A DNA stretch of 64,000 nucleotides from Bacteroidota bacterium (lineage in GTDB: Bacteria > Bacteroidota > Ignavibacteria > UBA10030 > CAVZMI01): positions 9,941-73,940 of the forward strand of contig JBEKIL010000012.1 of the NCBI GenBank assembly GCA_050011775.1, given 5' to 3'. Below are positions 4,212 through 56,096 of this stretch, in pieces. The notes under the pieces are model-generated. The model did not search any database and had not been told where the DNA came from. It was given only the letters and a program-made list of their open reading frames with translations. How positions within the stretch are numbered: the first letter of the stretch is position 1; each line of letters begins with the position of its first letter. A program made the translations under genes and the position numbers.

Positions 4212-5222
4212 ATGATCTCACAAGCAATGACTCTTCTTGCTCAGGGGAAAAATCTGCAGCAGGAAATCGCTTATCGTGCGATGATTCAGATCCTTTCCGG
4301 TGAAGCAACACCTGTGCAGATCGCCAGTTTTCTCACGGCTCTGCGAGTGAAGGGGGAAAGTGTGGAGGAGATCACAGCCTGTGCAAAGGTAATGCGCGAA
4401 AAAGTTACGCGTATCCAGTCGAAACATCCCGTTATTCTTGACACATGTGGGACAGGTGGAGATGGCGGCAATACATTTAATATTTCCACCGCGGCGGCAA
4501 TTGTTGCCGCAGGAGCCGGGGCAGTCGTAGCAAAACACGGGAACAGGGCAATCTCAAGTAAGTGCGGAAGCTCCGATGTCCTGAAAGCCCTTGGAGTTAA
4601 TGTCGATCAAACCACTCCCGAAAAAATGCAACGCTGCCTGGATGAGATCGGCATTGCGTTTCTATTTGCACCCCTCCTGCACGGTGCAATGAAATATGCG
4701 GCTCCCATCAGACGCGAACTGGGGTTCCGGACGATATTTAATATCCTCGGACCGCTCACAAATCCGGCCGGAGCGACACGACAGCTTATCGGTGTGTACG
4801 AAGCATCATTAATACGACCGATTGCGGATGTTTTACTCAATCTCGGGGTCGAACATGCATTGGTTGTTCACGGCGCAGGCGGTTTTGATGAAATATCGAC
4901 GCTCGGAGCCACGAAAGTCAATGAAATCAAGGATGGAAAAATACTCAGTTATGAAATCAATCCGGAGGAATTCGGTTTCGAAGTTCCAAGGCTTCACGAT
5001 CTCCTTGGCGGTGATGCCGAGCAGAATGCGCATATTCTTCTTAAGATTTTTCAAGGAGAACGGGGACCCTGTCGGGATATCACCGTCCTGAACTCCGGTG
5101 CCGCATTGATGGTCACGGGACTGGCATCAACCATAAAAGAGGGTATTCAACGTGCGCAATCGGCAATTGATGATGGAAGCGCATTGAAGAAACTTGATCA
5201 ACTCCGTGAACATGCAAAATAA
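4212..5222 (+). CDS. trpD: anthranilate phosphoribosyltransferase
   Basis: GTGGDG motif, NISTAAAIV, and KHGNRA(I/V)SS motif typical of TrpD. Confidence 0.9.
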   Translation: MISQAMTLLAQGKNLQQEIAYRAMIQILSGEATPVQIASFLTALRVKGESVEEITACAKVMREKVTRIQSKHPVILDTCGTGGDGGNTFNISTAAAIVAAGAGAVVAKHGNRAISSKCGSSDVLKALGVNVDQTTPEKMQRCLDEIGIAFLFAPLLHGAMKYAAPIRRELGFRTIFNILGPLTNPAGATRQLIGVYEASLIRPIADVLLNLGVEHALVVHGAGGFDEISTLGATKVNEIKDGKILSYEINPEEFGFEVPRLHDLLGGDAEQNAHILLKIFQGERGPCRDITVLNSGAALMVTGLASTIKEGIQRAQSAIDDGSALKKLDQLREHAK

Positions 5223-15558: not shown

Positions 15559-16366
15559 ATGGATCGCTTTAAAGGTATCTATCGTATCGAATCCATCCGT
15601 CTTGCAGGTTGGGATTATGGTTCGACCCCTCGACAAGCTCAGGGCAGGCAAGCTCACCACAAGTGGTATGCCGGGTTGGTATTTTGTCACCATCTGTACT
15701 AAAAACAGGGTAGAATTGTTCGGAGATATTGTGGATGGGGAAATGATCCGGAATGAGATTGGAGAGATAGCACATCAAATGTTTAAAGAAATCCCGACAC
15801 ATTACAAAGATGTCAGATTGGATGATTTTATTATAATGCCGAATCATGTACATGGAATAATTGTGTTGGGAAATAAGTATAATCATGGATTGTCGAATAG
15901 TCGGGGAGAAAGTAGAGACAGATTGCGGGATAGGTGGGTGGATAAATGTAGAGAAAGATGGGGATATAAAAGGGGAAATGAAGGGGAAAATAATTTAGGA
16001 GGTGAGTGGAAAGATGAGTGGGGAGACGCAACGTCTCCCCACATAATAAGGATAGAATGATGATCTCCCTACATGGTGAGGACAGAATGATGATATGGTG
16101 CAGAAAAAAAGAGAGTCTTTCTAAATGGAAAATTGGATTTTGAAATGTCCGAAAAACCGGAAAACTATTTCATGTCAGCAATATCCCCCAAAGGTGGATC
16201 ATTGGGTGCGATTGTACGGTCATTTAAATCTGCCGTTACAAATTATATACATGCGGATGGATTTCGCGATTTCGCTTGGCAATCCCGATTCTACGATCAC
16301 ATTATTCGAAGTGAGAAAAGACTTAACATCATTCGGAGATACATTAGAAATAATCCAAAGCGGTGA
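15559..16366 (+). pseudogene. disrupted REP-associated tyrosine transposase (RAYT / IS200-like Y1 HuH transposase); N-terminus in one frame, HuH core shifted +1, C-terminal catalytic-Tyr segment separated by a ~260-bp insert containing stop codons
   Basis: Fragments SIRLAGWDYGS (frame 1). WYFVTICTKNR...MPNHVHGIIV (HuH, frame 2, ORF 15602..16060). GSLGAIVRSFKSAV...FAWQSRFYDHIIR...IRRYIRNNPKRW (ORF 16133..16366). Together these reproduce the RAYT/IS200 TnpA motif order but are not contiguous. Confidence 0.6.
15890..16150. repeat. purine-rich (GA-rich on + strand) insertion inside the RAYT gene; contains perfect 21-bp palindrome GGGGAGACGCAACGTCTCCCC (16019-16039) and a two-copy direct repeat AGGA(T/C)AGAATGATGAT
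   Basis: read directly from the sequence; the segment separates the HuH and Tyr motifs and introduces in-frame stops. Confidence 0.5.
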
Positions 16367-39793: not shown

Positions 39794-39964
39794 CTATTAC
39801 CTTCGTTTTTAAAAAGATCAGTAAGAAAAGGAACAATGAAAATCTTTTTCATAGCGGAGAGAGTGGGATTCTCCGCCGCATTGGATTGAGCGATGGAGGC
39901 GGATCAGCCTCACCGATTTATAATGCGTGGCTGAGAACCCACGGTTAATATTCATCCGCTATCG

Positions 39965-40052
39965 CGGAAGGGGTGGGATTTGAACCCACGTGACGCTTGT
40001 GACGCCAACTCGCTTTCCAGGCGAGCCGATTCGACCGCTCTCGCACCCTTCC
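39965..40052 (-). tRNA. tRNA-Ser (anticodon GGA), type II
   Basis: reverse complement folds: acceptor GGAAGGG/CCCTTCC, anticodon stem CTCGC/GCGAG with loop CTGGAAA, long variable arm, T-arm GTGGG-TTCAAAT-CCCAC. Confidence 0.8.
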
Positions 40053-44271: not shown

Positions 44272-44471
44272 ACTGCTACCGCCTTTCTTCTTCTCTATAT
44301 TTCATACCCGTTCTCATTGCAGCATACGGCACAATTTCGAACGGATATCTGCTCTATCGATATCCGGACTTTATTTTATACATTCACACTTTTCCGTCCC
44401 ATTTTAACGAAATGGAAGTCGATTTGGGCTAGCCGAACGAAGTCCCGTGTGCAATTCGCGGGACGTAATTT

Positions 44472-44810
44472 GGCGACTGACTGCGCTCCTCCCCGGAGCT
44501 TCGTCAGTCAGGCTGATAAAGAGGGCCTGCCAAACGAAGCCTTGGCGTAGTTTGGCGACTGACCACGCTTCTACCGGAGCTTCGTCAGTCAATAATTGAT
44601 TTTTACCTGCTTGACGAAGTCCCATATGTTTCTCGTGGGACGCAGTCAAGCGACTGACTACGCTCCTCTCGGAGCTTCGTCAGTCAGGCTGATAAAGAGG
44701 GCCTGCCAAACGAAGCCTTAGCGTAGTTTGGCGACTGACTACGCTCCTCCCGGAGCTTCGTCAGTCAGGCTGATAAAGAGGGCCTGCCAAACGAAGCCTT
44801 GGCGTAGTTT
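44472..44810. repeat. array of 81-bp structured tandem repeats (three full copies, one half copy, interrupted by a 58-bp GTCCCA...TGGGAC hairpin spacer). Each unit contains two imperfect palindromes, GACTGAC...GTCAGTC and GCCAAAC...GTTTGGC
   Basis: copies at 44472-44552, 44553-44590 (half), 44649-44729, 44730-44810; >90% identical. Confidence 0.85.
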
Positions 44811-44826
44811 GGCGGAGGGGCAGGGA
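44811..44826 (-). repeat. 16-nt direct repeat of the 3' end of tRNA-Ser(CGA) (GGCGGAGGGGCAGGGA = CCA + discriminator + acceptor + part of the T-stem, bottom-strand sense)
   Basis: identical to 45537-45552. Confidence 0.8.
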
Positions 44827-44857
44827 CCGACTACGTCCCGTTTCCACCTACGTTCGC

Positions 44858-45142
44858 CTACAGCGAACTTCGGTGGACAGACCGCGGGACTTCGTCGGTT
44901 AAAATTCTTTTTTTTAATATTGCTTTTCCAGATCCTGTCTTTAAATATTTCTCCAATTCTCTCGCCTTTGATTCTGATTTCACTGCAACATAAGCTGATA
45001 TTTCTAAAGGTCGATATGCTTTGGTCGACTGAACAACACCATTATTATGTTCTAAGACTCGTCGATCCAAATTATTCGTTGATCCTATATAAATAAATCC
45101 CTTTCTGATATTTCTCAGAATATATACTTTCCAAATTAACAT
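44858..45142 (-). CDS. GIY-YIG nuclease superfamily protein, YhbQ/UPF0213-like (94 aa)
   Basis: KGFIYIGSTNNLDRRVLEHNNG matches the GIY...YIG...R...E...N core of the GIY-YIG domain; its C-terminal ~13 codons run into a 70-bp palindrome. Confidence 0.7.
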   Translation of the reverse strand: MLIWKVYILRNIRKGFIYIGSTNNLDRRVLEHNNGVVQSTKAYRPLEISAYVAVKSESKARELEKYLKTGSGKAILKKRILTDEVPRSVHRSSL

Positions 45143-45296
45143 AGCTTGGTCCTATCTCTTGAGGGGGCTTTAATAATAAGAACGAAAAGAGGTTACATAT
45201 GAATGGGGTCGACTACGTTCCGTTTCACGGAACTTCGTCGACCAAGGCCTGCGTAACGAAGTTCCATCCCGTTGTTTCGGGATGGGACGCAGTCAT

Positions 45297-45538
45297 GCGA
45301 CTGACTGCGCTCCTCCCGGAGCTTCGTCAGTCAGGCTGATAAAGAGGGCCTGCCAAACGAAGCCTTGGCGCAGTTTGGCGACTGACTACGCTCCTCCCGG
45401 AGCTTCGTCAGTCAGGCTATAAAGAGGGCCTGCCAAACGAAGCCTTGGCGCAGTTTGGCGACTGACTGCGCTCCTCCCGGAGCTTCGTCAGTCAGGCTGA
45501 TAAAGAGGGCCTGCCAAACGAAGCCTTGGCGTAGTTTG
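45297..45538. repeat. second array of the same 81-bp repeat (three tandem copies) abutting the 3' end of tRNA-Ser(CGA)
   Basis: copies 45297-45377, 45378-45457 (1-bp deletion), 45458-45538. Confidence 0.85.
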
Positions 45539-45626
45539 GCGGAGGGGCAGGGATTCGAACCCTGGGTACTCAGAAGAGTACACCGGTTTTCGAGACCGGC
45601 CTAATCGACCACTCTAGCACCCCTCC
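45537..45626 (-). tRNA. tRNA-Ser (anticodon CGA), type II, CCA encoded
   Basis: reverse complement: acceptor GGAGGGG/CCCCTCC, anticodon stem CCGGT/ACCGG with loop CTCGAAA, variable hairpin GTACTC-TTCT-GAGTAC, T-arm CAGGG-TTCGAAT-CCCTG, then G-CCA. Confidence 0.8.
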
Positions 45627-53267: not shown

Positions 53268-56096
53268 ATGAATCCCGGCCCAGGTTACTATAATCCCAAT
53301 CGGCGTCTTCCTGTTATCATCATTGTTTCTGTTATCATTGTGGTCACCGGCGTGACAGGATGTTCGGTTTTTTCTCCGATTGGTGACTTCATCAGCCAGC
53401 GGTATGAAAATACCGTTGCATACTTTAACACATATTACAATGCATCAACGGCATTTAACGATGCAGAAAACGAAGTAATACAACAACAACAGACTCTTCG
53501 TGCGAAAGACCAGCCGATCAAATTGGGAGAAATATCATCGACTGCAAAGCAGAAATTTGATATAAGCATTGAGAAACTATCGCGATTGCTCACCTTCTAT
53601 CCAACAAGTAAATGGGTCGATCGATCTCTCGTCATGATCGGGAAAGCATATTACTATGAAGGTAATATTGTTCGTGCAGAGCATAAATTTCGTGAGTTGA
53701 TTACTACAATACCATCGAGTGATTATGTGAATACGGCGAAGCTCTGGTTAGGACGTACACTGGATGCAGCGAATAAATTCCAGAATGCTCAAAAAGAACT
53801 TGTGGACCTAATTCCCCGTGCGTATGAAAATGGAGAAAGAAATATCGGAGGAGAAGCCGGACTGCTTCTCGGTCAGATATGCCTCAAGCTTGATGACAGC
53901 AGCGGGGCATTATCGGCTTTTCAGACAGTGATAGATCAATCGCACGATGACGCTCTAAAAGCTCAGGCTCAACTCTCCATCGCCGAGATCCTTGCCGAAA
54001 ACGGTGAAAAGGAAGATGTCTTTAAGGCTTTCGCCAGGGTACGTGATTTCAATGCAGAGCTTGTGACCGAATATAAGGCACGCTTAAGGTTTGCACAATA
54101 TATGGTAAAAATTGGTCGATACGATGATGCGATATCCGAGTTGCAGTTTCTTCTCGACCATCCTGATTACAGCGAATACACTGCGCAAATAAAATATTCA
54201 CAGGCATATGCATTCCATAAAAAAGGGGATATCACAGAAGCTTGGGAGCGGTATGTAGAAATCGATTCGCTCTATTCTCGCAGCGATGTAGCAGCACAAA
54301 GTTACTTCCAACGGGGGTTGATACAACAAAAAGATTCGGGAAACTATCGGACGGCAATGGCGATGTTTGAAAAGGCGCGTACTGAATATCCGCAATCTCC
54401 AATCACACAAAAGGCAACTGTATATGCCGAGAGTATGAAGCAGTATGTCCAGCTCCGAGCCAGGATTGCTCGCTGCGACTCGCTTCTGAGACATTATTCG
54501 GAAAAACCTGATAGCACACACAAAGATACTGTGGCCGTAGACACTGCCAAAAATAAGAATAAGACAATAAAAGAGTTTGAAAATCCGGAGACAGCAATAG
54601 ATTCTTTGAAGATAAAAACAGTCAAAGCCGCTGAGATGACCGCTGTCGAGGAAAACAAGAATACGAAAGAAACGGACAGTACTAATGTATTGAAAGACTC
54701 AATTGTTGTGAAAAAAGATACGACCAAAATAACGACAAAGGCGTTAGAAAATCCGGAGACAGCAGTGGATTCTTTGAAGATAAAAACAATTAAAGCAGCA
54801 GGAATGGCTGCTGTCGGGGAGATCAGAAATACGAAAGAAACGGACAGTTCTCATGCATTGATAGATTCAACTTTAATTAAAAAAGATACGACCAGGACAA
54901 CAACTAAAATATTAAAAGGTCCGGAGTCAGTAGTAGATTCTTTGAAGATGAAGACAGCCAAAGCAGCAGGGCTGGCCGCCGTCCGGGGAATCAGGAATAC
55001 GAAAGAAATGGACAGTACACGTGTATTAAGAGATTCAATTGTAGTGAAAAAAGATACAACCAAGACAACAAAGGCAGCTGTCCAGGATTCCATAAAGGTA
55101 CTTGGTGACAGGGTTGCAGCACTGTACGAGCTTGGATCATTGCTCTATTTACAGCTTGACGAACCCGATTCGGCAATGCAGATTTTAAAGGATGTAATAA
55201 GTAAGTCTCCGCCGGATGATATCGCTGCGGGTTCTCTCTTTACCATCGGGCAAATCTATCTCACAGCATTCAAGAATCGCAAACAGACGGCAGATTCACT
55301 CTCGGACAGTATTCTTGTGAAATATCCGACATCAAAATACGCGCAGGAAATTCGGCGTCAGCGCGGGCTGCCGCTCCTTGAGATATCCGCGGAAGAAGAA
55401 CCTCATACACTTTTTCTGGAAGCAGAAAAATCCCTGATTAAAAATGATAGTGAAACTACATTACATCTGTACAAGAAAATTATCGAGAAGCATCCTAAAA
55501 GCGAAGAGGCATTAAAAGCCCGGTATGCCATCGGATGGTTTTATGAAAACACCTACAAGAATATCGACAGCGCTATCACATGGTATAGTACTCTGGTAAA
55601 AGATTTTCCTACATCGGCATATGCGGCGAAAATTAAGGGAAAAATTGATGAAGTTGAGGCGGCGAAAAAGAAGCAGGATACAACCGCTGCGACTCAGAAA
55701 CGATCGCAAGTAACAACTCCATCGCAAGCACCTGCGCAAACACATGCACAGGGTGATACTGCTCGAACAACCGTCAAAGATACACTCGCACGGCGTCAGG
55801 CTGTTCCGAAACAGATTGACTCGGTAACAACTGCAACTAAAGATTCACTGTTAAAACGTCCGGCGATACGCCGGCAGTTCGATGGTGATGAAGATCAGCT
55901 CAATCGTCCTGGGGAAAAAAAGGGACAACTCAATGTGCTTTCAAAGCCGACAGGGAATATTAACATTGAAAAAGACACGAATAAAACTGTCCTTCCTGAT
56001 TCACTTTTGAAAAAAGTATCAAAAACTATCGATGAAGAGATTAAATTCAATCAGTCAAAAAAGGATAGTATACAACCAGATACATTAAAACATTAG
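53268..56096 (+). CDS. large TPR-repeat lipoprotein with an internal 3x tandem 57-aa repeat and a Ser/Thr/Gln-rich C-terminal tail
   Basis: lipobox VTGC, multiple TPR-like helices, repeats at 54580-55090. Confidence 0.55.
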   Translation: MNPGPGYYNPNRRLPVIIIVSVIIVVTGVTGCSVFSPIGDFISQRYENTVAYFNTYYNASTAFNDAENEVIQQQQTLRAKDQPIKLGEISSTAKQKFDISIEKLSRLLTFYPTSKWVDRSLVMIGKAYYYEGNIVRAEHKFRELITTIPSSDYVNTAKLWLGRTLDAANKFQNAQKELVDLIPRAYENGERNIGGEAGLLLGQICLKLDDSSGALSAFQTVIDQSHDDALKAQAQLSIAEILAENGEKEDVFKAFARVRDFNAELVTEYKARLRFAQYMVKIGRYDDAISELQFLLDHPDYSEYTAQIKYSQAYAFHKKGDITEAWERYVEIDSLYSRSDVAAQSYFQRGLIQQKDSGNYRTAMAMFEKARTEYPQSPITQKATVYAESMKQYVQLRARIARCDSLLRHYSEKPDSTHKDTVAVDTAKNKNKTIKEFENPETAIDSLKIKTVKAAEMTAVEENKNTKETDSTNVLKDSIVVKKDTTKITTKALENPETAVDSLKIKTIKAAGMAAVGEIRNTKETDSSHALIDSTLIKKDTTRTTTKILKGPESVVDSLKMKTAKAAGLAAVRGIRNTKEMDSTRVLRDSIVVKKDTTKTTKAAVQDSIKVLGDRVAALYELGSLLYLQLDEPDSAMQILKDVISKSPPDDIAAGSLFTIGQIYLTAFKNRKQTADSLSDSILVKYPTSKYAQEIRRQRGLPLLEISAEEEPHTLFLEAEKSLIKNDSETTLHLYKKIIEKHPKSEEALKARYAIGWFYENTYKNIDSAITWYSTLVKDFPTSAYAAKIKGKIDEVEAAKKKQDTTAATQKRSQVTTPSQAPAQTHAQGDTARTTVKDTLARRQAVPKQIDSVTTATKDSLLKRPAIRRQFDGDEDQLNRPGEKKGQLNVLSKPTGNINIEKDTNKTVLPDSLLKKVSKTIDEEIKFNQSKKDSIQPDTLKH
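54580..55090 (+). repeat. intragenic tandem repeat, ~171-bp period x3 (ENPETA(I/V)DSLKIKT(V/I)KAA...KKDTTK units)
   Basis: repeat starts at 54580, 54750, 54920 read directly from the sequence. Confidence 0.75.

Follow-up and report, generated by a model that had tools for sequence, protein, structure and literature searches.

A stretch of 64,000 nucleotides from a Bacteroidota bacterium (contig JBEKIL010000012.1, positions 9,941 to 73,940; hereafter the window) carries on its minus strand a tRNA-Ser(CGA) gene followed by a cluster of hairpin-forming sequences, among which lies a single small gene encoding a GIY-YIG nuclease. Two long imperfect palindromes frame this gene, dyad 1 at its 3' end and dyad 2 upstream of it, and a 17-nt copy of the tRNA 3' end abuts dyad 1. 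Our comparison of this locus with its relatives in other genomes indicates that the dyads are cis-acting end modules of a conserved cassette anchored at tRNA-Ser genes, in which a hairpin A stands at the tRNA end and a hairpin B at the gene end, dyad 1 being one hairpin B nested in another. A preliminary description of the window had proposed that the gene is framed by conserved, structured, element-end-like modules and not by ordinary intergenic DNA. This was borne out, but the enzyme family named there was not, and neither the tRNA-Ser gene nor the second copy of the tRNA 3' end had been noticed.

Folding of the two dyads

The two dyads were of common design, as had been described, with coordinates that moved by 1 nt: dyad 1 spans 44827-44898 (previously 44826-44897) and dyad 2 spans 45208-45242 (previously 45209-45243), or 45207-45243 when one extra pair is counted. 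Folding with RNA parameters gave z-scores of -4.1 to -5.1 for the dyads on both strands, and folding with DNA parameters gave z-scores of -3.9 to -5.7, with a central A-T pair formed between two 1x1 mismatches. The stems are interrupted at the matching position, and either strand folds with this 3x3 interruption. It had been thought to leave bulged or extrahelical bases; the folds showed instead a symmetric 3x3 core made of G.A, A-T and A.G.

Read on the minus strand, the dyads, the inner hairpin of dyad 1 (CCACC-TAC-GTTCGC/GCGAAC-TTC-GGTGG, about 44844-44876) and both hairpins of the neighbouring 81-bp repeat, hairpin A in the opposite orientation, all follow the design X-C GAA G-Y-loop-Y'-C G(T/C)A G-X' (an example of the purine strand is GGTCGACGAAGTTCCGTGAAACGGAACGTAGTCGACC). 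The folded core is two-fold symmetric, with CGNAG on either arm and the oppositions G.A, A-T (or A.C) and A.G. The inner hairpin carries the identical mismatch, which the preliminary description did not mention. A strict scan of the whole window for X5-GAA-Y4...Y'4-G(T/C)A-X'5 gave 10 matches, all inside 44477-45491, and none in 20 shuffles. The 81-bp units (45299-45540 and 44652-44813) have either T or C in the middle of the 3' arm, and the two alternate even where neighbouring units are otherwise identical (CGTAG/CGCAG, or CTACG/CTGCG on the other strand); the 5' arm of these units is invariably GAA, and the centre thus remains purine-pyrimidine (A-T or A.C).

The additional hairpins reported downstream of dyad 2 proved real: CATCCCG/CGGGATG forms the inner stem of the module at 45251-45298, and GGAACTTCG can pair alternatively with CGAAGTTCC across two adjacent modules. 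The T8 run noted after dyad 1 (44908-44915), however, is coding, since its reverse complement supplies the Lys codons of ..LKKRIL in the GIY-YIG open reading frame (ORF). An intrinsic terminator formed by dyad 1 and T8 was rejected because the run lies on the strand opposite the gene, 10 nt from the stem, and consists of these codons; neither dyad was called in terminator prediction. Only tRNA reached threshold in Rfam, where the hairpins were unmatched at the gathering threshold and, at E up to 10, gave a single chance match to CRISPR-DR48 (E 5.7).

The cassette in other genomes

A word-indexed search returned 423 relatives, and of 358 encoding stretches (one genome per species) the best 80 were examined. 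These loci belong to Ignavibacteriota, Bacteroidota (Cytophagales, Chitinophagales), Marinimicrobia/Fidelibacterota and Balneolaceae. A tRNA-Ser gene was present on the gene's strand within 800 nt upstream in 65 of the 69 loci with at least 800 nt of upstream sequence, with a median spacer of 105 nt and with the anticodons gct (28), gga (13), cga (12) and tga (12). Two of the four exceptions were counting artefacts. The only loci with no tRNA-Ser within 2.5 kb upstream of the GIY-YIG gene, L057 and L082, are sister branches in the protein tree, and this lineage may have left the tRNA site.

The cassette runs from tRNA-Ser through hairpin A, the GIY-YIG ORF (85-94 aa) and hairpin B to a second copy of 13-17 nt from the tRNA 3' end. 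The tRNA ends in ..CCGC(CA), the outer stem of hairpin A opens with the tRNA's own G73-C74, and the core of hairpin A begins exactly 4 nt past C74 in 62 of 66 cases; in the window, the last bases (GCCA) of tRNA-Ser(CGA) make up the opening pairs of the first hairpin A. Directly 3' of hairpin A, nearly all loci have a conserved AGGC (pattern GC-NN-GC; 45508-45518 and equivalents in the window) with no obvious pairing partner. The ORF ends in ..KRILTDE(A/V) and is overlapped by hairpin B, whose 5' arm consists of the TDE codons (..TDEV in dyad 1) and whose CGTAG often supplies the stop codon (TAG). The tRNA tail copy abuts hairpin B in about 50 of 72 loci and starts at T-loop position 60-62; at L037, hairpin B sits within the T-loop of a longer tRNA copy (GGGTTCG-B-AATCCC). 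The cassettes of Cytophagales lie between tRNA-Ser and tRNA-Arg/Pro, and in the gct clade of this order hairpin B abuts the next tRNA. A full-text literature search, with most subscription journals outside its reach, found no description of a tRNA-Ser/GIY-YIG/hairpin cassette.

A second, divergent family of small GIY-YIG proteins was also observed at tRNA-Ser 3' ends, as the first gene after or near the tRNA-Ser (L010, L055, L067, L033, L038, L026, L013 and L087). Identity to this family was about 34-40% where measured (L087, L092), and behind its genes lie perfect palindromes and a tRNA copy of greater length, comprising the T-arm and the acceptor. Two nuclease families accumulate in this manner at one target, the tRNA-Ser 3' end. 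The contig of L084 ends in hairpin arrays (4460-4542) and many homologues are on contigs of less than 2 kb; piles of these repeats appear to break short-read metagenome assemblies.

Conservation and orientation of the mismatch core

The mismatch, which had been called conserved from its two occurrences in the window, recurred in other copies and other genomes, with stems that covary around a conserved core. A scan for any 3x3 loop between perfect stems of 5 bp and 4 bp returned GAA/GTA 66 times, GAA/GCA 29 times and every other combination at most 10 times, and the wider consensus was RAC-GAA-GY...RC-G(T/C)A-GTY. Covariation was measured on hairpins chosen by position and core, not by pairing, and compared with 500 shuffles. 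Paired cells amounted to 87% for type A (70% when shuffled) and to 80% for type B (65% when shuffled), and the scores were 0.44 against 0.15 for type A and 0.46 against 0.21 for type B; no shuffle scored as high for either type, and slid controls scored 0.02-0.15.

Motif hairpins numbered 227 in the cassette regions (1.9/kb) and 14 in 248 kb of flanks (0.056/kb), a 34-fold difference, and most of the 14 resemble chance matches. When metagenomes were searched with the B-hairpin pattern alone, all 13 matches adjoined a tRNA-Ser or a GIY-YIG gene. The codons that make up the 5' arm of hairpin B were also constrained: Asp is encoded by GAC in 30 of 31 genes, against 31% elsewhere in the same ORFs, and Glu by GAA in 30 of 31, against 54% elsewhere. 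This codon usage indicates that selection on the arm acts at the level of the nucleic acid.

These results bear on the possibility, raised in the preliminary description, that the dyads are simply degenerate copies of the 81-bp repeat, that is, neutral debris with no function of their own. The dyads do lie inside the repeat cluster and share the core of the repeat, and the hairpins are of the same family. However, the dyads are not degenerate copies, because their stems differ by compensatory changes; moreover, several phyla retain the core with compensatory changes in the stems, the hairpins keep a fixed position, spacing and orientation, and the codons are constrained. We thus regard debris as an extremely improbable explanation, and the comparisons indicate that the hairpin family, including the dyads and the hairpins of the 81-bp repeat, is independently conserved.

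The hairpins at the tRNA end had a single orientation in 66 of 67 cases and those at the 3' end of the gene had the inverse orientation in 45 of 47, and hairpin A is therefore an inverted hairpin B. Loop composition was likewise inverted between A and B, many B loops being of the GNA or GNNA type. Two other interpretations of the ends were rejected. A and B are not true terminal inverted repeats, since only the core is common to them and the outer stems agree in few loci (L077, L078), and hairpin B followed by GCCA is not a mimic of a tRNA minihelix, since GCCA merely begins the next hairpin A. The folded core is symmetric, and the two arms taken as plain duplex would be differing half-sites, which makes the folded form the more economical target of selection. 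We infer that folded DNA, as a cruciform or a single strand, is the object of this selection.

Hairpins that act at the RNA level would be an alternative, with the gene co-transcribed with tRNA-Ser and hairpins A (5') and B (3') being processing or stability signals that release and protect a small mRNA, or serving as RNA substrates of the GIY-YIG protein. The gene is directly behind the tRNA on its strand with no sigma-70-like promoter found between them, hairpin A takes in the last bases of the tRNA, hairpin B directly adjoins the following tRNA in the gct clade of Cytophagales, and GNA and GNNA loops are frequent in B. In addition, a prokaryotic Slx1-like domain is fused to a TrmH-type tRNA methyltransferase, for which the authors suggested a role in RNA metabolism (PMC1564403). 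However, A and B are opposite on the transcript, where A offers U.C/C.U and B offers G.A/A.G, and one RNA-binding factor would therefore be unable to read the same core in both; the loops are inverted as well. The sense-strand stems contained fewer G.T (G.U in RNA) than A.C oppositions, 21 against 41, the reverse of what is expected of a selected RNA fold, and the modules nest, occur in both orientations within arrays and match no Rfam family. Every characterised GIY-YIG enzyme known to us acts on DNA. In view of these results, we consider an RNA-level role unlikely.

The GIY-YIG protein

The nuclease gene is the sole gene inside the cassette. Comparison of 36 sequences showed that Y7, Y18, R28 and E64 are invariant and that H32 is nearly so. 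The AlphaFold2 (AF2) model (pLDDT 89) contains a folded domain at residues 1-81, and residues 82-94, which are encoded by hairpin B (dyad 1), are predicted to be disordered; the bare catalytic domain ends at residue 81 and no C-terminal DNA-binding domain follows it. The closest folds were those of Slx1 (Foldseek E about 5e-4, 26-35% identity) and not those of I-TevI or UvrC, a profile match was obtained to the bacterial UPF0213 protein 1zg2 (E 3.5e-6), and the TIGR01453 score was 25 against a cut-off of 56. By these profile and fold matches the nuclease is of a minimal Slx1/UPF0213-like GIY-YIG type, 85-94 aa long across loci. It was unmatched in PADLOC and PHROGs, and its profile retrieved no relative from viral contigs; it is therefore not a phage element.

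Slx1 is a structure-specific nuclease that cuts branched and structured DNA, and the eukaryotic protein requires Slx4 and has a RING domain. To our knowledge, bacterial UPF0213/Slx1-like proteins have not been reported to have a dedicated DNA site, to be linked to tRNA genes or to form part of a cassette. These minimal GIY-YIG proteins were without assigned function in a 2006 survey of the family (PMC1564403), and none assigned since then was found in the searchable literature.

The preliminary description had compared the hairpins with the ends recognised by single-strand HuH transposases (IS200/IS605 TnpA, RAYTs). Involvement of such an enzyme was not upheld: the cassette contains only the GIY-YIG gene, and no transposase, integrase or RAYT domain was present in the 38 ORFs of the window scanned against Pfam. 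The same result bears on the idea that the hairpins are sites or scars of a recombinase encoded elsewhere, either attC-like or integrase att sites at the tRNA-Ser 3' end, with the GIY-YIG gene as a passenger. Direct repeats of 13-17 nt of a tRNA 3' end are a classic signature of integrase insertion, as for NBU2 in a Bacteroides tRNA-Ser gene, and they occur here; the layout resembles that of a folded attC site, with an outer stem (often ..AAC/GTT..) followed by an unpaired spacer, an inner stem and a variable loop, and cassette-like tandem units exist. However, no integrase or transposase domain lies between the repeats at any locus either, and the GIY-YIG gene is beside the hairpins wherever the contig permits. 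The modules are inverted, with a core of conserved sequence, whereas attC arrays have a uniform orientation and a spacer that is not conserved, and the codon constraint links hairpin B to the end of the gene. A recombinase encoded elsewhere is thus a quite improbable explanation.

Turnover and inheritance

Each 81-bp unit of the window consists of hairpin A, AGGCC plus a spacer, and hairpin B, and is therefore the gene cassette minus the gene. Dyad 2 and the module at 45251-45298 form a further gene-less A-B pair upstream of the GIY-YIG gene, and a short AT-rich leader separates dyad 2 from the ORF. Comparison with L001, whose flanks are 94% identical, showed that dyad 2 and its partner hairpin are missing there and that the number of 81-bp units differs. 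Modules were found inside the loops of others, B in B (the window and L001) and B in A (L025, L012), as well as B in a T-loop (L037).

Near-identical tandem cassettes were present in L014, L037, L051 and L046/L065, and decayed second copies or remnants were common (L012, L088, and the second copies in L063/L064). In L088 (1123-1214), a tRNA-Ser is followed only by the last GIY-YIG codons and hairpin B, a decayed cassette. Gene-less arrays occurred at other tRNA-Ser genes of genomes with the gene nearby (L081, L038), and L090 (1-260) consists solely of gene-less tandem units, each made of B, a 9-nt tRNA tail, A, AGGC and a spacer. Most tRNA-Ser genes without a GIY-YIG gene also lacked hairpin A. 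Where the cga and gga tRNA genes form a conserved pair, it is the cga gene that has the cassette behind it in L002, and the gga gene in L032. The protein tree showed mixed isoacceptors in the Ignavibacteria clades and isoacceptor-specific clades in Cytophagales, and there have thus been both movement and long vertical residence. An orthologous empty site was sought by means of a neighbouring 157-aa gene, for which only two homologues were found, both in the cassette-bearing lineage.

These observations also concern the possibility of a host-beneficial, immobile locus, in which the nuclease guards or repairs tRNA-Ser genes at a frequent integration hot-spot, for instance by resolving recombination intermediates or secondary structures there, the hairpins are its operator or loading sites, and the repeats result from slippage only. 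The vertical inheritance and isoacceptor-specific clades of Cytophagales, the conserved gene sequence and the Slx1-like fold agree with it, and slippage or unequal crossing-over can yield tandem arrays. However, most tRNA-Ser genes without the nuclease gene lack the hairpins too, occupancy shifts among isoacceptors, decayed copies are common, and a second, divergent GIY-YIG family accumulates at the same site. Such traits are those of selfish elements, and we find an immobile host locus improbable.

A model for the cassette

In the reading that we favour, the nuclease would recognise or cleave the hairpins at the DNA level, and the whole would be a selfish or semi-domesticated cassette anchored at tRNA-Ser; we give it about an even chance of being correct. 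The nuclease would recognise the core, and probably nick it, when the DNA is folded, whether as a cruciform or while transiently single-stranded. A symmetric nuclease dimer is plausible at the symmetric core, and CGNAG fits the cleavage motif of the I-TevI domain, CNNNG. Breaks at the modules and in hairpin loops, whether those of modules already in place or the T-loop of the tRNA, would then be repaired by copying or recombination, through which the cassette and its gene-less derivatives would spread, be duplicated and persist at tRNA-Ser genes. The GIY-YIG domain of I-TevI cleaves within CNNNG (PMC12774661), and the free-standing GIY-YIG nuclease SegB of phage T4, encoded in a tRNA cluster, recognises the T-arm motif GGTTCRANTCC (PMC2330249). 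These two precedents and the Slx1 fold, although they are resemblances only, make the mechanism plausible.

Several results weigh against this reading. The link between protein and hairpins is one of co-occurrence only, and the protein lacks a DNA-binding domain, consisting of the catalytic domain alone. The isoacceptor-specific clades of Cytophagales point to long vertical residence, which a domesticated or host function would fit equally. The length of the tail copy varies, from 4 nt in the 81-bp units of the window and 9 nt in L090 to the typical 13-17 nt, a variation not expected of a fixed staggered cut. Hairpins A and B of one cassette share no sequence beyond the core, the modules are not dispersed in the genome, unlike REPs (repetitive extragenic palindromes), and no strictly orthologous pair of filled and empty sites at near-identity was found. 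Finally, the counts of G.T and A.C oppositions were inconsistent, 36 against 15 on the purine strand but 33 against 29 in the position-anchored sets, and because these datasets disagree we make no claim on which DNA strand folds.

A stronger version, which we put forward tentatively as the less probable of the two, is that the cassette belongs to an undescribed class of minimal mobile DNA in which a nuclease of about 85 aa inserts the cassette and gene-less pairs into hairpin loops. The targets would be the T-loops of tRNA-Ser and the loops of resident modules, with recognition of the G.A-mismatched CGNAG core in extruded hairpins. Such an insertion would leave the tRNA intact and displace a tRNA tail of 13-17 nt.

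Features of the window

The features of the cluster are listed in Table 1 in the order in which they follow the tRNA gene on the minus strand.

Table 1. Positions of the tRNA gene, nuclease gene and hairpin modules in the window
Feature	Position	Strand	Basis
tRNA-Ser(CGA) gene	45537..45626	(-)	ARAGORN; Rfam tRNA 54 bits; sequence
Three 81-bp units, gene-less A+B mini-cassettes	45299..45540	(-)	Tandem Repeats Finder (TRF); module coordinates
Hairpin A of these units, GCCAAA-CT[A/G]CG-CCAAGG-CTTCG-TTTGGC	45513-45540, 45432-45459, 45352-45379	(-)	
Hairpin B of these units, GACTGA-CGAAG-CTCC-GGGA-GGAG-CG[C/T]AG-TCAGTC	45460-45493, 45380-45413, 45299-45332	(-)	
Hairpin A variant, GCATGA-CTGCG-TCCCATCCCG-AAACAA-CGGGATGGAA-CTTCG-TTACGC	45251..45298	(-)	Folding, module coordinates; absent from L001
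Dyad 2, hairpin B variant, GGTCGA-CGAAG-TTCCG-TGAAA-CGGAA-CGTAG-TCGACC	45207..45243	(-)	Scan, folding; absent from L001
GIY-YIG nuclease ORF, 94 aa	44858..45142	(-)	Pfam PF01541 GIY-YIG, E 6e-16; catalytic residues; AF2; fold matches
Dyad 1, terminal hairpin B of the gene cassette, ACCGA-CGAAG-TCCCG...CGGGA-CGTAG-TCGGT	44826..44899	(-)	Scan, folding
Second hairpin B, nested in the loop of dyad 1, CCAC-CGAAG-TTCGC-TGTAG-GCGAA-CGTAG-GTGG	44842..44878	(-)	Scan; also in L001
17-nt copy of the tRNA-Ser 3' end, TCCCTGCCCCTCCGCCA, T-loop position 60 to CCA	44810..44826	(-)	Exact second copy
Two more 81-bp A-B units	44652..44813	(-)	TRF; A 44786-44813, 44705-44732; B 44733-44766, 44652-44685
Further modules, cluster end	44432..44651	(-)	Scan, module coordinates
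Modules within the cluster end	A variant 44609-44651; degenerate B 44557-44590; A 44529-44556; B 44475-44509; A variant 44432-44474	(-)	

A partial tRNA copy was also observed within 39855-39963 on the minus strand, about 100 nt past a second tRNA-Ser gene, tRNA-Ser(GGA) (39964-40052). It consists of ACCGTGGGTTC, then 63 nt with the plain palindromes TCAGCC..GGCTGA and TCCGCC..GGCGGA, then GAATCCCACTCTCTCCGC. Its acceptor strand reads TCTCTCC where the resident tRNA has CCCTTCC, and matches that of the tRNA-Ser(GGA) of L002. Neither a GIY-YIG gene nor a CGNAG core is present at this place, which looks like a T-loop-split, displaced tail from an older cassette of another type. Two other repeats of the window are unrelated to the cassette, a 168-bp tandem repeat in three copies (54564-55071) inside a 942-aa ORF (53268-56096) and a 30-bp repeat in two copies (16034-16094) upstream of tRNA-Arg(CCT).

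Comparison with known systems

By analogy, the cassette is most like REP/RAYT systems in its lifestyle. Both have one nuclease-type gene between inverted imperfect palindromes (here in 66 of 67 and 45 of 47 cases for the two orientations), gene-less palindrome pairs that multiply, a largely vertical inheritance of the gene and a presumed recognition of folded DNA. However, RAYTs are HUH Y1 transposases (Y1_Tnp) and the enzyme of the cassette is an Slx1-like GIY-YIG protein; REPs are dispersed in the genome whereas the modules of the cassette are confined to tRNA-Ser 3' ends (0.056/kb outside); and the cassette has a symmetric CGNAG/CGNAG mismatch core and a duplicated tRNA tail. We place the cassette outside REP/RAYT because it has no HUH enzyme and its units are not dispersed.

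Homing endonucleases of the T4 SegB type resemble the cassette in having a GIY-YIG ORF among or behind tRNA genes (PMC2330249). SegB recognises the T-arm, the duplicated tail of the cassette starts in the T-loop, and spread by break repair is plausible. Varying tRNA-Ser occupancy and tail duplication would be indirect signs of homing-type cleavage of an empty allele and copying into it. By contrast, SegB and I-TevI have long DNA-binding domains whereas the cassette protein is a bare catalytic domain of 81 aa, and the cassette is chromosomal with no viral relatives, whereas Seg elements are without hairpin ends, gene-less derivatives and tail duplication. The best profile and fold matches of the nuclease itself were to Slx1/UPF0213 (YhbQ-like) proteins.

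IS200/IS605 ends and attC sites are recognised by their structure together with a few conserved unpaired bases while the stems vary, and the same would hold for the cassette. However, the core of the cassette is conserved in sequence and symmetric and does not consist of extrahelical bases. The hairpins of IS200/IS605 elements are on one strand at both ends, whereas the ends of the cassette are inverted and TnpA is missing. The attC sites of integron and CALIN arrays share one orientation, with IntI nearby and a spacer not conserved in sequence, whereas the modules of the cassette occur in both orientations and no integrase was found among the 38 window ORFs. Integrative elements that target tRNA genes resemble the cassette in that a 13-17 nt direct repeat of the tRNA 3' end flanks an insert that leaves the tRNA whole, but the insert of the cassette measures 0.08-0.7 kb and contains only the GIY-YIG ORF, with no recombinase.

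Significance

Our results provide one branch of the bacterial UPF0213/Slx1-like proteins with a candidate DNA substrate, the CGAAG/CGTAG mismatch hairpin, and with a candidate genomic target, the 3' end of tRNA-Ser. If insertion into hairpin loops is real, this would be the first dedicated substrate and the first biological role for bacterial proteins of this kind. If the nuclease indeed drives the cassette, the latter would be among the smallest autonomous selfish units known and would represent a second, independent invention of the REP/RAYT lifestyle, and it would show how an essential tRNA gene can undergo repeated colonisation and still remain active.

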